From: Eledone cirrhosa
Taxonomy: Eukaryota
Direction of reading: 5' to 3'
Length of the DNA stretch: 64,000 bases
Assembly: GCA_964016885.1 (NCBI GenBank)
Contig: OZ024740.1
Location: 74,896,001-74,960,000 of the forward strand
Made by a program: the position numbers and the translations under genes. How positions within the stretch are numbered: the stretch's first letter is position 1; each line of letters opens with the position of its first letter. The notes beneath the pieces were generated by a model that saw only the letters and a program-made list of their open reading frames with translations, was not told the DNA's origin and ran no database searches. Below, one piece after another: positions 2,056 to 62,875 of this stretch.

Positions 2056-2412
2056 ATATAATATCGTCTTTTTTAATCTATCATGGATTACGTTACTGAT
2101 TACATAAGGCAGTGTAACACAGTCTTCGTTCAATTTCTGTGTATATTGTCAATTACGATTTATATGATCATATCTACATGCATATACACTTGCGTATAAT
2201 ATCAATATACACACTACACATGCTAGCAGATATATAATATCGTCTTTTTTTTAATGAATCATGGATTACGTTACTGATTACATAAGAGAGTGTAACACAG
2301 TTTTCGTTCAATTTCTGTGTATATTGTCAATTACGGTTTTATTTAATGTATCATATCTACATGTATATATACTTGCATATAATATCAATATACACACTAC
2401 ACATGCTAGCAG
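2056..2412. repeat. Direct tandem duplication of about 178 bp
   Basis: tataatatcgtcttttt...cactacacatgctagcaga occurs twice with few mismatches. Confidence 0.85.
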
Positions 2413-2527
2413 AAAAACACCCGAACGGTGGTTTTTCTGCTTGTATATATAATTGGTGTTGGATGGTTAAAGCGTCCGTATGCTGTAGGCCGTTTGAGCA
2501 CTCGATGCTCTCATAGAGCAGAGTATG

Positions 2528-2667
2528 ATATCACAGAAAAAAAAGAGAATCAGTGTTGCGACGAATGGAATTTATTGGACATATTACAATCGTAATATTA
2601 CGATTGTAATATGTCCAATGAATTCCATTCGTTGGAACACTGATTCTTTCTTTTTTTTCTGTGATAT
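2528..2667. repeat. Spacer-less palindrome of about 140 bp centred at 2596/2597
   Basis: atatcacagaaaa...caatcgtaat|attacgattg...ttttctgtgatat. Confidence 0.85.
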
Positions 2668-3042: not shown

Positions 3043-45311
<42,269 letters not shown>

Positions 45312-52325: not shown

Positions 52326-52691
<366 letters not shown>

Positions 52692-56257: not shown

Positions 56258-59092
56258 ACTAACTGCATTTGGCAGCCACCACTAGTGTAGATAAAATATA
56301 TTTTAATTCGTGTCAATATATTTAATTTAGGGGATATTAAAACGCTAGAAATGTTTTGTTTTTACTACTTAGTGAGGGAGAGAAGGGAAGTACCCATAAT
56401 CCTTTTCAATGACTCTGAGACTTGTGGAAGGAAGACACTGTTTTCAAATAAGAGATTTGGCCCAAATGCTTGCAACGTAGTGGACTCTGCTAAAAGACAC
56501 ACAAGGATCAAGCGGTGGTATTATACCGAGAGACATATTAAGTCAATCACGGAAAAAATACAAACTAGAAGCTAATTATACAAAAATAAAAGATGGGTTT
56601 AGAAAAGAACAGGGAAGGTTAACATTTAAAAAAAGAAGATATTTTAAGAGACATAATCGGGTAGGTAACTACACTCAATGAAGGAATATGATGACATTTT
56701 CACATAAAAACCGAAAATAATGGTAGAAGCACGCTCCTACGTTAGTGTGTGACAATTCTATGTCCACGGTACTTTGGAGCATGCCAGTACAAATTGACAC
56801 AAGATATCAAAGTAAACTACCTAGTCAAAAACATTCTAGTTGTTGAAAGAAGAAGATCCGTCATATTAGCTGTAGAAGATAGCAGTTTGATAGTGGTAAA
56901 ATATTGAAGTTCCTAGAATACAATTTCACAAGGATTTCTGTCAGAAAATAGTTACATTTTGGATAGTTCTTCAACGGAGATTGAATTAGAATGCTACAGT
57001 TGAAAAGACAAGGCAGATAATAAATTTTGTTTTAAATTTTGAGCTGAGGAATTATCATGATCATAAATTTATTTGCTAGTATCCCTATTTTAATTGCAGA
57101 CCTGTCAACTCTTCCCGTCCAACAGGGAGATCTCCCACCCACTTTAGGGTGGGTGAGAGATGTCTTCTCTTGTGAAAATGGGTATAGCTTTCATTATGTA
57201 AAATCTCCCCATTTTGCCTCATTTCTCCCCGTTTTGGGGCACTTTTTTCATGATACTCCCCGTTTAGGTTTTTAGAGATTAGCATGTCTGTAATTGTTAT
57301 AGTCCCAACTATAGTAACCATGATGAGGAGACTAGTCCAAATAAGTCAGTGTATAATAGCAATAATTCGCCGTCTTTAAAATTTATACAAAATGAATCAT
57401 ATCATTACGGATGCAACGTGATACTAGAATTGTGATTATAACAACCAAGGCGAGGACACTATATACAATAAATCAACCTATGAGAAATATGATATAATCT
57501 GGTATCAGAAATGTTAAAACGTCCCATGGATAATCTGAAACCCCAGCAAGAAAGTTAATTTAAGTTTGAAGTGGCAGTTGATGGTAAAGTGCATGATAGC
57601 AATGATAAATGAGTGTGCCATAGTGTCAAGTGTATACACTAGAAGTACTCACAGATAGAAGGAAATCACTTGACCTGGAGCAGAATGTAGTCTAAAAATT
57701 CTGAAGCTGCGGTGAGGAAAAAAAAATTGATAACGATTTCAGGCCAAGCTGAAGAAATACGAATGAAAAAAAAAACTGGAATTATTCTATAAAATCTTAG
57801 TGAAACCCACAAAGTTTTTTACTGCCAATCCACCTACTAATATAAAAATAATGCACAATACAAATGTAAACAATGTAAAAGACGCCAAGACATAACCATT
57901 GTAAGGCAACAATCAAATTCCTCTATGTTCATTACACGTTAAAACGAGATTGCTTTAGCATCATATGTAAAAGTCAAAATCAACAGTTTGAAATCAGTCA
58001 TTGCCCCCCCCCCCCTCCACACACACACACAGACTTTCCTCTCATTTATGGCATTTATAGCCCTTTCTCCTACTTTTCTATACAGTCAGATCTGCCCTTC
58101 TTTACCCCTTCCCCACGGTTCATTGCTTAGTTTCGATCTTATCCTTTTTTTCGTTTTTCTTTTTCTTCCATATTTCCATCAATATTTGTAATGTTATTTA
58201 TACAACTGTGAATTGATTTATTGTCTGTAATTCTATTATAACATAAAATTATGCTTATGTGAAAAAAAATAAGTTGTAAAATCTCATCACATTATTAGAA
58301 CATACTGATTTAAATCATCCGAAAAATATATACTGACTATTTTTTATTTACTCTTTAATCAAGGAGGGAAGAGCAGAGCTCCTGGCCTGTCTTCATGGCT
58401 TTCATGATTGATGTGAGGGAGGAAGGGAGGTATCATAAAACAGGAGACTTGGTCCGAATGCCTGCAATAAAGTGAACTTTGCTAAAATGACACAAAGACG
58501 GTTGTTAGTATTAAACCGGGCAGCCGATTAAGTTTACAAACCTAGTGGACTACAGCGTGATTTGAACTCAGAACACAAAGAAAGGAGGAAAAGCAATGTT
58601 GACCACAGTGGGCAATGAACTAGTAGAGACAGTCAGAACTAATACTGCAAGGAATGTTGTTCTATTCGCTAACAACTCGCCGATTATTTGAATGACTTAG
58701 CAAATACCATAGGTGAAGCGGTTTCAGGAAATACAGCAGTGCCTCATTTTTGTGAATGCTCAGTCTTAGTAATGGGGCAGTATACATATATATATATATG
58801 AGAGAGAGAGTAGATATATTTACAGGCTAAAATATAAGTAGATGAAACTCCGTCGATTTCGACGACGATTATTCCCGTTGATAGGCCTACGGAACAGCCA
58901 ACTCGGTAAATTAATGTGTATGTGACTATATACTCCACAGACACGTGTATCCTTAACGATACTCAAAGTATGTAACAAGTCTGGCGCTTTGAGTTACATG
59001 TACAGTCCATCTGACTCGTGTCTAAACGGTTTCTGTAAACCAAATTTCACGAAAAATGCTTGAGGCAACCCAAACATAGTATGTAAAATGGT

Positions 59093-59177
<85 letters not shown>

Positions 59178-59923
59178 GTATGTATGTTTATATGCACATT
59201 GCTCGCTTTATATGCACATTGCTCGCTATATATAATAAAATGAGCAAATAAAGGTCCATTCGAAGAATGTTTCCTATATGTACCATTCTAAGCCACTTTC
59301 TATTTAATATAGATCGCCAGAGAATCAGTGAGTTGAAAATGGTTTCATTTCAACCTTCTCATGTGAAGCATACCTGGTTACCATTTGGCCGCATGCTAGC
59401 CAAATCTTATTCAAATTACATTGCACCATATGGTTTTAAACAATGAAGGCAGTGTTCCAGCATGGCCTTAACAGCGATGGTTAAATAATAGCGAATCCTC
59501 TGTCAGTTTCTACGATGAACATTTAGTCATTTGATTAACTGAATATACTACACGTTATATTAACGTTATGTTGGCTGAGTATTCCACGGACACATGTACC
59601 CTTAATGAATCAGAATATGCATGACTCAATATAGGACAAGGTTGGACCTTTGAAATGCAGGTAGTATAATCCATCCGATAGGTTTCCATACAGCTTCTGT
59701 CTACCCAATTTCACTCACAGGCTTGGGTTGACTTGAGGTTATGGTAAATACGTTTTTATCCAAGATGCTACGTAGTGGGAGTGAACCTTGGATGAACTTC
59801 TTAACCACTGAGCCATGTTTGCTTTATTTCGGCTAAACTAAGCAAAAGAACTAAAAAAAAGTTGGATATGTGCAAAGACATATTCAAACTTTTGTTTGAA
59901 TGTGTCTTTGCACATATACATTT

Positions 59924-60007
59924 GCATATCTGATGAGATGTCGAGTCCGGCCATGGTCATCATGATTGTACCCTGAGCTGATCGATATTGAAACGATTGT
60001 AATATGC
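59924..60007 (+). ncRNA. Type-I hammerhead ribozyme motif, complete, with minimal stem III
   Basis: Stem I GCAUAU/AUAUGC; core CUGAUGA (59930-59936); stem II GAUGUCGA/UCGAUAUU; GAAAC (59990-59994); loop GAUU; GUA cleavage triplet (59999-60001). Confidence 0.85.
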
Positions 60008-60499
60008 CAATAAAGTTTATAACAGTGACTTCGATCCTACTTACTTTTATTCACACTTTGCACTCTACAATCCAACACAAGACGGACCTTGTAACAGCAT
60101 CGAGTGCTTGGAACAGCGAATAGCTTGTAACTGTAGTTAACACTTAACACACACACACGAGTGTGTGTGTGTATGTACATATGCATGTATGCATGTGTGC
60201 ATCCATGCCTGTGTTTACATTTGTATCTGTGTTTGTGTTTACGTACCTTAGCTTAGCGGTTCGACAAAAAAGTGATAGATAAAATAAGTACCATACTTGA
60301 AAAAAAAAAGTACTGGGGTTGATATGATCAATTAAATCAAGGCGATACCCACACTATGGTCGCAGTCAAATGACTGAAACCAGTCAAAGTTTAAAATAGC
60401 AAACGAGTATATCCGAACTTGTTTTACAATCTAACAATGCAGTCAATTAAGCATTATATGCTATATTGGCTCTTAACACCCTGTTTAGCAAGAAATATC

Positions 60500-62245
60500 C
60501 ATACTTGATGATCATTCTCTATGATGATCAACCCTCAAACAATGCCTCCCAGTTCTCCATATCAATTTTCTGAGCTTTAAGATTGTCTTCTTTGGATTAT
60601 GCTATGGTCATTTCCCTCTAGTCAGCTCCCCATAAAATAACTGTTTAGGCAGCCTTCCATATTCCATCCTGACCACATGACTAGCCCAACGCATTTGGTT
60701 AATAATAATCTTTCTCTCAATACTGGTGCTGTCTGTTTTCTCAAGTACAGCAGCATGAGGTGTGTAAGAGGACCACACGATGTTCAGGGTGCGTCAGATA
60801 CAATGCTGATGAAACCTTTCCAGCTGCTTGATGTGATGCCTGTAAATTGTTCACGTTTCGCATCCGAACAGGGCTGGAAGAACACATGCTTCATACAAAG
60901 AGAGTTTTGTGTTTCTCCTGATACCCCTATCTGACCAGACTCACCTCTCAAGCTTCTCGAAGGCAAGACTCGCCTTCGCAATTCTGTGATTTATTTCGGT
61001 ATCGAGGTTACCATCTCTACTAAGTGCACTTCAGAGATACACTAAGCTGTCCACCACTTTCCCTCTCTCGAAAATGTCTGAATCCACATACACTCTCCCA
61101 ACTGATGGAGTGTACATGGCCTTTGCCGTTTTTATACTAACATTTTGCCCAAATGCAGTGCATGCATTGGAGAATGTGTCCAATATCAACTTAATGTCCT
61201 CTACAGTGTGAGCCACACAATCTGCATCATCAAGCACACAGGAACATCCTGGCAAGAGTGGCAACTGTTTTGGACTTGGTGTTAAACCGTCTTAGATTAA
61301 AGACTTTGCCAGAGGTTCTAATTCACAAGTATACACCGATTTCGAAATCTTGGAAGGCATATGTCAGCAGCATGGCAAAGTAGATGGAAAACAGTGAATG
61401 CAGGTATGTCGCTTTGCTTGACACCGTTTTCCACCAAAATTAGCTCTGAAAGTGTCCCATTGAAGTTCACTTTTGCCTTCATGTTTGATGGAGAATTTTT
61501 AAATTTTCCAACAAATTCAGGAGGGCATCCAAGTTCTCCTACAGTGCACTACGCTTAACAGTATCAAAGGCTTTAGTAAGGTCCTCAAATACTTGGTATA
61601 GTGGCTGTCGCTGCTCAACACTCTTCTCCATAAGCCGACGGGCTGAGAAAATCGTGTCCATAGTACCCTGCCCAGTTCTGAATACACACTGGGACTCAGG
61701 GATTGCACCAGAGCAGATCAATTCTATTAGACGATTCAGGATAAATATTTCCTACCGATTCGAGCAGACTTATACCACGATAATACTGCATTGAAATTTG
61801 GAGCCCTTGGCCTTGTAAATCGACAGCAAAATTGCATCTACCCAGTCTTCCGGGACAGGCTCACCATGCCATTCAGATAAAACTAGCCCATGAATGGTCT
61901 TAACAACACTTTCCCTTTCATAGCGGATCAGCTCAACAGGTATTCCATCCAAACCTGGAGCTTTCCCTATGTTTATCTCTTTGATAGTAGACGTTATCTC
62001 ATCAATGATCTTCATCATCTTCTGTTACAGTCTCCTTTTGCGGCAGTCCATTGATCATTTCCTCATCAACTACAAATGGGTTGTTAAACAGGCCTTTAAC
62101 GTGTTCAGTTCATCGACCCACAATTCCTGCTGGATCTTTGATGAAGACTTTTCCATTTTTTACTTCAATGGTAACATTTTTGAGGGCTGTGGGCCCAAAA
62201 CTTGCCTTATTGGTCTCTGCAGTTATAAGTTCTCTGCATCTTCGC
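60500..62245 (-). mobile_element. Degenerate RTE-clade LINE reverse transcriptase region
   Basis: Frameshifted motifs GKAPGLDGIPVEL, PESQCVFRTGQGTMDTIFSARRLMEK, DLTKAFDTV, NGVKQ, LDDADCVAH, QMRWASHVVRM..GRLPKQLFYGEL. Confidence 0.9.
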
Positions 62246-62875
62246 TGACATATTTACATATATACATACATGCATACATACATACATGCTTACATGCATA
62301 ACTTCTTATAACATTAATAATACATACATACATGCTTACAAGCATAAATACATATATACATACATAATACATACACACACACATACATACATACACTCAT
62401 ACAAAAATATATACATACATATGTACATAGTAGATCACGAATTCCCGCAACTCAAAAATTGCAACGTAGACAAAAACACGTGTATACCGTCTGTGTGAAC
62501 TAATTGCGTACGCTATGACATTGCTGCTTGCTCATTCACATATCACTTTACATGCGTCTGTATTACGTCAGAGGACTATGGGGTTTGCCCGTAGCTTTCT
62601 GTAGCTCCACCACTTGCCTCCTCCGTCACATTAGATAGAAATATATGCATATGCAAAATTATTAAAATTAACAATTGGGATGATAGATACATAATAGAGA
62701 TAGTTTCATACAGAGAAAGAAGGAAAACTATTAATATTAAATAAATAGTTAGTCAGATACATACTGTAGATACACACGCACAAATATAGACATAGACTTA
62801 TAACGAATAGAAACCACTTGGTTAATCTGTCTTTGAATATCGGTTATATATATAAATATATATATGAATATCGGT

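Follow-up and report, generated by a model that had tools for sequence, protein, structure and literature searches.

A minimal hammerhead ribozyme motif in a probable remnant of a Penelope-like element in the tolloid region of the octopus Eledone cirrhosa

The window, meaning the whole stretch of 64,000 nucleotides of Eledone cirrhosa that was analysed (assembly GCA_964016885.1, contig OZ024740.1, positions 74,896,001 to 74,960,000), contains coding exons of a tolloid/BMP1 gene and a hammerhead ribozyme motif embedded in a short repeat (Table 1). A CUB exon of the gene is 96% identical to a tolloid-like protein of Octopus vulgaris and 93% identical to that of Argonauta. Nothing in the window credibly matches residues 1-213 of the tolloid homolog. 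Because this first coding part is absent, the first exon presumably lies beyond the window, and the repeat is probably intronic and antisense. A preliminary description of this DNA had placed the hammerhead antisense to tolloid, which the strand of the mapped exons bears out; the orientation itself carries little meaning, since complete motifs also occur in the sense direction of tolloid, at 14224(-) and 15060(-). Other features of the neighborhood include a ~2.9-kb array of GTT/GTG-rich 9-, 30-, and 63-bp units (4287-7235), which holds a long Thr-rich open frame on the minus strand downstream of the last mapped tolloid exon and may represent a mucin-like exon or else a minisatellite, and a 58-bp tandem array of 7.4 copies (16030-16451) with a related repeat fragment at 60350-60400. 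The minus strand carries, at 60500-62300, a decayed reverse transcriptase (RT) remnant (RVT_1, E 2e-4) with a KAPGLDG-type start, by which it is presumed to be of the LINE type; this start and the location on the other strand led to its rejection as the RT of the hammerhead element, and it is apparently an unrelated LINE.

Table 1. Features of the hammerhead locus, its putative relatives, and the host gene (positions in the window)
Feature	Position	Strand	Basis or remark
Host tolloid/BMP1 coding exons	9280-45345	-	homolog mapping
Putative 5'-truncated PLE remnant (fold-back 5' end, hammerhead, AATAAA, tail hairpin, AC-rich end)	59863-60158	+	presumed limits
Left arm of snap-back inverted repeat	59866-59889		extends to 59863 beyond one mismatch
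Right arm of inverted repeat	59894-59917		element sequence upstream of hammerhead
Type I hammerhead	59924-60007	+	descriptor scan, both strands
Stem I, 6 Watson-Crick pairs	59924-59929/60002-60007	+	descriptor scan, pairing
Core CUGAUGA (C3-A9)	59930-59936	+	motif
Stem II, 8 pairs including 2 G·U	59937-59944/59982-59989	+	pairing; near match to Hydra-1_oBim row
Core GAAA (G12-A15.1)	59990-59993	+	motif
Helix/loop III ACGAUUGU, self-complementary via two G·U (dimer helix)	59993-60000	+	
Predicted cleavage site, after A17 of GUA triplet	60001/60002	+	motif geometry
AATAAA	60009-60014	+	common to relative at 2571-2593
Tail hairpin, GCACUC/GAGUGC on UACAA/UUGUA, 8-nt bulge	60060-60107	+	folding
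(AC)6-GA-(GT)6 microsatellite at 3' junction	60147-60172		(AC)6 60147-60158, (GT)6 60161-60172
Closest relative, palindromic remnant centred 2597	2400-2667		hammerhead 3' half (GAUU) on both arms; tail on left arm only
Distant complete hammerhead, perfect GAUC loop, 96-nt loop II	14930-15065 (15060)	-	sense to tolloid, within intron

The motif has the core of a type I hammerhead, CUGANGA...GAAA...UH at a three-way junction with helix I open, and both helices I and II can be paired (6 and 8 bp). The parts named in the preliminary description (a 6-bp stem I, CUGAUGA, GAAAC-gauu-GUA at 59990-60001 on the plus strand, and AATAAA downstream) are each present in their places, and cleavage after A60001 agrees with the site predicted from motif geometry. 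The 8-bp stem II with a large loop was likewise recovered, with a loop of 37 nt (59945-59981); what had gone unmentioned is that the stem is closed by a wobble, G10.1·U11.1, which is one of its two G·U pairs. Type I hammerheads have G10.1-C11.1 (or R-Y) here, with G-C preferred, and many Hydra-clade rows are likewise without G-C. The passages on this pair in PMC544870 and PMC2837043 call it conserved and state no rate for G·U. Loop II can itself be folded into an imperfect helix and includes two short palindromes that cause intermolecular pairing in a modelled tandem dimer, where they might possibly serve as an alternative dimer contact or act as a misfolding trap.

Chance rarely produces such a motif. 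With stem I of at least 6 and stem II of at least 8 pairs, one of 300 dinucleotide shuffles (block-wise, whole window) gave an equal; at looser settings (at least 4 and at least 3 pairs) the window contains four motifs, two of them being the arms of one palindrome, versus a shuffle mean of 0.08, and four were reached in none of 300 shuffles. An extremely improbable reading is that short motifs came together by accident beside an unrelated hairpin (e.g., a MITE or a miRNA-like hairpin), for which one could cite the modest fold of the 96-nt motif relative to shuffles (z -1.4), the weak matches of the upstream hairpin to miRNA models in Rfam (35 bits against a cut-off of 100, for which reason miRNA identity was rejected), and the lack of an Rfam hammerhead match. 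Rfam gave no gathering-level match over the window, nor was any hammerhead family among the 64 weak matches at 59000-61000, probably because loop II is as long as 37 nt and helix III is minimal. Against an accidental origin stand the shuffle frequency, the match to a published octopus PLE hammerhead (Hydra-1_oBim), and the agreement of 59993-60014, which comprises the 3' half of the core and AATAAA, with the relative centred at 2597 at 22 of 23 positions, an alignment score that none of 500 shuffles reached. As expected, a core-motif scan of prokaryotic genome contigs yielded no matches.

The inverted repeat that had been reported upstream of the hammerhead is present at 59866-59917, with 24 pairs (23 Watson-Crick and one G·T), a TTTT loop at 59890-59893, and a fold z of -10; its arms lie 38 nt upstream of the core, and the left one would be an inverted copy made by self-priming. 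At the other end, the element stops ~150 nt past the cleavage site, so that the hammerhead lies close to its 3' end. The preliminary description had left the type of element unnamed. The reported marks of Penelope-like elements (PLEs; PMC8557442) include inverted copies truncated at the 5' end, a tail confined to one arm, insertion at microsatellites, and a 3'-proximal hammerhead; octopus genomes are said to be rich in PLEs (PMC13282606, PMC8967140). The (CA)n end noted earlier near 60147 does exist as a short (AC)6, but treating this tract and the hairpin as special parts is not supported, both being generic features of PLE insertion; there are 48 such tracts in the window, and the tract at 60147 is probably the target junction and not the tail, either as host target or as slippage product. 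Additionally, a dispersed SINE-like repeat (59650-59820, homologs at 38760-38855 and 11537-11732) lies directly left of the fold-back and may have cut off a longer inverted arm. The closest parallel for the 5' end is found in the Penelope pLTRs of Adineta vaga (Arkhipova et al. 2013, PMC3846280), which are described as having short near-perfect 5' palindromes ascribed to self-priming (18 and 38 bp there, ~52 nt here) and a tail on one of two inverted arms; they differ in clade and host and in having target-site duplications, of which none longer than 5 nt was found at 59863-60158.

These features indicate that 59863-60158 is very probably a ~290-nt 5'-truncated PLE remnant, and quite likely, as a fuller statement, the non-coding 3' remnant of an EN+ PLE, most likely of the Hydra clade, lying antisense in a tolloid intron. 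The copy carries no coding sequence, and a Pfam scan of the 213 ORFs of at least 55 aa in the window detected no remnant of a PLE RT or GIY-YIG domain and hence no physically linked PLE ORF, which counts against the reading; such an absence is expected because the copy is 5'-truncated. Membership of the Hydra clade, which is defined by the RT motifs RWK/DKT and a CxCX5C linker without CCHH, is proposed provisionally from the hammerhead. Supplement File S2 of PMC8557442 (Craig et al. 2021) tabulates Hydra-clade hammerheads, including Hydra-1_oBim of O. bimaculoides, and in this table helix III is AC...GT in 26 of 26 Hydra-clade rows and cleavage follows an A in 12 of 26. The motif at 59924-60007 has, as judged by eye, the same AC...GT helix III (shorter by one nt) and a similar stem II. 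Over stem II and the start of its loop, 10 of the 12 non-core positions of the 5' strand agree with Hydra-1_oBim, as do 6 of the 7 of the 3' strand; one pair is compensatory (T-A there, G-C here), and an internal G·U is found in both. Agreement of this degree would arise by chance at ~0.009 (binomial, ~80 rows compared). Further likenesses are the octopus host, the CUGANGAG start, and the lack of G10.1-C11.1 for Hydra-1_oBim, and for the clade the frequent GUA site, the hammerhead near the 3' end, microsatellite insertion, and 5' inverted copies. In contrast, loop II measures 37 nt here versus 8 nt and helix III 8 nt versus 9-10 nt, and the copy has an extra U11.1, a different stem I and downstream sequence, a (CA)n junction, and no ORF. 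It would represent a family separate from Hydra-1_oBim, as a new member among already known PLE hammerheads.

The junction also bears on whether another PLE clade (Penelope/Poseidon, Neptune, or Nematis) is the source, since (TA)n is the reported target of the Hydra clade and the copy ends at (AC)6. Palindromic loop III variants reported from mosquito, Drosophila, rotifer, and shrimp PLEs (PMC4209133) would be compatible with such a source, as would an ATG (59938) where stem II begins, which recalls the layout of the anole Poseidon element (PMC11167929). That ATG opens only 12 codons, however, and Hydra-clade entries are favored by the GUA site, by the tail hairpin, and by stem II, whose closest match in the rows compared is of this clade, making another clade an unlikely source. 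The anole element itself, PAc Poseidon of Anolis (Frangieh et al. 2024, PMC11167929), resembles the copy in its AC-rich stem-loop region ~100 nt past the hammerhead, at the element end, and in the use of uncleaved RNA as template; it differs in having an ORF that begins at stem II and a measured activity, whereas here the frame closes after the 12 codons and any activity would probably be weak. A comparable mixture holds for the minimal PLE hammerheads of Cervera 2014, with which the copy shares a helix II of 7-8 bp, a palindromic dimer-needing helix III, flanks that are rich in U on the 5' and in AU on the 3' side, an occurrence mostly as truncated, solitary copies, and pairs on opposite strands. 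It departs from them in that no extra unpaired H stands between A9 and 10.1, the G...C that follows in their consensus (G10.1-C11.1) is missing, the palindrome leans on G·U, and loop II is very large.

The small size and the lack of an attached ORF (213 scanned) also recall non-LTR retrozymes (Cervera and De la Pena 2020, PMC7229834), small non-coding repeats of low GC that carry a type I hammerhead. A solo monomer of such a non-autonomous repeat, expressed as circular RNA, would fit the ~290 nt and 6-bp stem I, as the monomers are given as 150-450 bp (PMC7229834), and the border between the two is soft if retrozymes derive from PLE pLTRs, as a 2026 preprint proposes (10.64898/2026.07.22.740005). 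Yet the locus has no tandem repeat of a 150-450-bp unit and no second copy nearby, stem II is a non-canonical 8 bp with a 37-nt loop as opposed to the canonical 4 bp (PMC4209133), and the fold-back end and one-sided tail are described as marks of PLE insertion (PMC3846280). A retrozyme origin is accordingly considered improbable, and the PLE reading is retained.

Approximately ten similar palindromic remnants occur in the window. Relative to the one centred at 2597, downstream segments are identical at 21/50, 21/51, and 14/33 positions (41-42%), and since the 3' half of the core agrees at 22 of 23, the core is better conserved than the flanks between families, as the preliminary description had expected of paralogs. 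Sequence kinship to the complete motif at 15060(-) was rejected as marginal (13 of 500 shuffles reach the score), leaving it a structural paralog only. Further hammerhead-bearing palindromes are centred at ~3521, 3781, 13384, 14260, 24116, 28466, 28670, 32014, and 52387. The arms of 12 palindromes were compared, of which two gave uninformative alignments that latched onto neighboring arms; in six of the ten informative cases, including the closest relative, one arm terminates at a microsatellite, whereas the other is 4-11 nt longer and reaches into the tail hairpin, i.e., the one-sided tail of inverted PLE insertions, and the copy at 59863-60158 has the tail region. One arm ends at (TA)n in 8 of the 9 other informative palindromes, in contrast to the (AC)6 of this copy, and its inverted arm spans just 24-27 bp and lacks the ribozyme, unlike those of most neighbors. 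Ten palindrome centres (2597, 3521, 3781, 13384, 14260, 28466, 28670, 32014, 52387, and 59891) fall in or within ~40 nt of a hammerhead core, and the fold-back points always lie upstream of the cleavage site, a pattern that suggests uncleaved templates and stalling of the RT at the ribozyme fold and that may in part reflect selection bias.

The relatives also clarify the sequence of loop III. It had been supposed that GAUU is a one-change departure from the palindrome GAUC, but ACGAUUGU pairs with itself over 8 bp including two G·U (computed -5.8 kcal/mol), thereby conforming to the minimal PLE hammerhead consensus of a self-complementary 15.2-16.2 plus loop 3 (Cervera 2014), and both arms of the closest relative (2571-2622) carry GAUU. 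Of the paralogs in the window, whose loop III consensus had been proposed as a check, the distant motif at 15060(-) has GAUC and the closest relative does not. For comparison, self-pairing of the GAUC copy amounts to -10.0 kcal/mol and a mixed GAUU/GAUC pair to -7.9 kcal/mol. Because both arms of the 2597 copy read GAUU, the source element probably had it already, and CpG decay after insertion was rejected as the origin of the loop III G·U; the same decay was rejected for the internal wobble of stem II, which is common to Hydra-1_oBim, and is possible for U11.1. The assignment to the type I hammerheads with minimal helix III held; hammerheads of this kind are reported to need dimers (PMC4209133).

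Folding calculations suggest that the individual copy would be a poor ribozyme. Trimmed to its stems, 59924-60007 adopts a hammerhead-compatible fold in 3.2% of the ensemble, which is first of the four complete motifs, but with 10-nt flanks the value is 0.8% versus 12.8%, 6.3%, and 2.1% for the other three, and with the upstream hairpin included it is 0.06%. Stem II has a pairing probability of 0.9-1.0 in constructs up to 60020 and ~0.5 with the tail, while that of stem I varies between 0.02 and 0.8 depending on the flanks and is ~2% with the upstream hairpin. In silico, an artificial head-to-tail dimer paired via the palindromes of loop II instead of adopting the double-hammerhead fold (P about 2e-6). 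The earlier ranking of this motif as the best candidate for wet-lab work is hence difficult to uphold, as it is closed by G10.1·U11.1 and comes first only without flanks. In published assays, single minimal hammerheads are reported to show no cleavage in vitro and dimers low cleavage (PMC4209133), and the ribozyme of the anole PAc PLE required protein (PMC11167929); no cleavage test of a Hydra-clade hammerhead was found in the literature examined. With its wobble closure, a predicted compatible fold below 1% with flanks, and no tandem partner, self-cleavage of 59924-60007 would probably be weak: measurable cleavage is judged somewhat more likely than not if helix III were stabilized and unlikely for the native monomer.

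The intact core, the all-Watson-Crick stem I, the adjacent AATAAA, and the first rank when trimmed could nevertheless be taken to mean that an active ribozyme has been co-opted to process an antisense transcript of tolloid, cleaving beside AATAAA, while the upstream hairpin would serve as a stem that insulates or is edited by ADAR. Every one of these features is explained by inheritance from the element, the pairing of stem I collapses once the hairpin is included, and similar motifs are found on both strands of the tolloid gene, so that co-option is very improbable. Since the element is on the opposite strand, it cannot cut the tolloid pre-mRNA, and the solitary copy at 59863-60158 is, from sequence and folding, probably a weak or silent fossil. 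Such a single hammerhead matters little, as these motifs are numerous (reportedly thousands per animal genome, PMC4209133; 235 annotated in the giant squid, PMC6962438) and one octopus PLE hammerhead has already been tabulated (PMC8557442). No dedicated study of octopus hammerheads was recognized by title in the literature on hammerheads and octopus or cephalopods; closer relatives may be listed in supplement file 1 of PMC4209133 or in bioRxiv supplements.

For the PLE remnant favored here, a consistent history can be proposed. Within the source element, cleavage by the hammerhead would take place after GUA in tandem transcripts, by way of an 8-bp intermolecular helix III and probably with help from an element protein. 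The RT of the element would have copied an uncleaved transcript, because the cleavage site lies within the copy (which agrees with the main substrate in PAc being unprocessed RNA, PMC11167929), and would have been primed at a microsatellite on the AC-rich tail. It would then have halted ~40 nt upstream of the ribozyme core, and the end of the cDNA would have folded back and primed itself, giving rise to the 24-bp palindrome.

The tail hairpin is a variant of a hairpin of the form CUC-stem-2-nt bulge-GAG that stands behind other hammerhead families; across families, the bulged hairpin recurs 50-75 nt downstream of the core, within the one-sided PLE 'tail'. A descriptor for the form with a 2-nt bulge, designed post hoc, has 23 matches in the window, five of which follow a hammerhead half at a distance of 30-110 nt (against 0.33 expected; 2 of 23 half-motif coordinates are off by a few bases), and with bulges of 2-8 nt, 8 of 64 matches lie behind hammerhead halves (0.93 expected), at six loci that include 60060-60107. 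The inner stems vary in sequence between families, and singly the hairpins fold weakly (z -0.2 to -2.3), that at 60060-60107 having a bulge of 8 nt and not 2. By eye, the hairpin is present in two of six published new Hydra consensus ends (Hydra-2_Amil and Hydra-2_Ajap) and nearly so in Hydra-1_Crog, the remaining three sequences ending ~35-47 nt past the cleavage site; the downstream sequence of the present copy is unlike Hydra-1_Obim. The words hairpin and stem-loop do not occur in the main text of PMC8557442, and no earlier description of the tail hairpin was found in the openly accessible literature. In the Poseidon element, RT initiation has been placed in an AC-rich stem-loop (PMC11167929).

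A tentative and rather doubtful extension of these observations is that the copy represents a Hydra-type PLE family of octopods, not yet described, with a two-part RNA module at its 3' end, consisting of a dimer-dependent hammerhead and the CUC-stem-bulge-GAG hairpin. The helix III of this hammerhead would be tuned by G·U and able to pair with families that have a GAUC loop; the hairpin, a conserved feature that corals and sea cucumbers would share with octopus, would act in cis to recruit the RT and to set the two 'tail' start sites; and the ribozyme fold may also set the point at which the RT stalls and primes itself. If the tail hairpin is such a binding or initiation signal, it would offer studies of PLE priming a small, conserved, mutable target, as well as a marker for ORF-less PLE remnants that Rfam misses.

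Several other hammerhead-bearing repeats in the window deserve mention. A head-to-head palindrome at 14124-14395 adjoins (TA)n, has the tail hairpin on its right arm only, and holds two complete hammerheads (cores 14296+ and 14224-) with G10.1-C11.1, an 11-bp AT-rich stem I, and an AUA site; in the models, these fold better into hammerhead shape and may be better assay candidates than 59924-60007. One palindrome family, folded back inside loop II (3466-3576, 28410-28489, 28616-28725, and 52329-52445), carries the 3' half of the hammerhead, in which helix III has 5-6 bp and the site is GUC; monomer cleavage might be possible for a member that is intact. A second family (13342-13426, 26040-26080, and 31947-32081) has a 4-bp helix III (ACAG/CUGU) and a GUA site, like published Hydra-clade rows. 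Finally, 23352-24905 is a near-perfect 1.5-kb palindrome with hammerheads at 24784+ and 23438-. A 28-aa frame at its centre (24112-24196) resembles the decayed end of an endonuclease and was set aside, having no Pfam match. The palindrome has a long T-rich arm resembling a 3' UTR and a one-sided tail hairpin, is 99% identical over 381 nt, and is probably a recent insertion.
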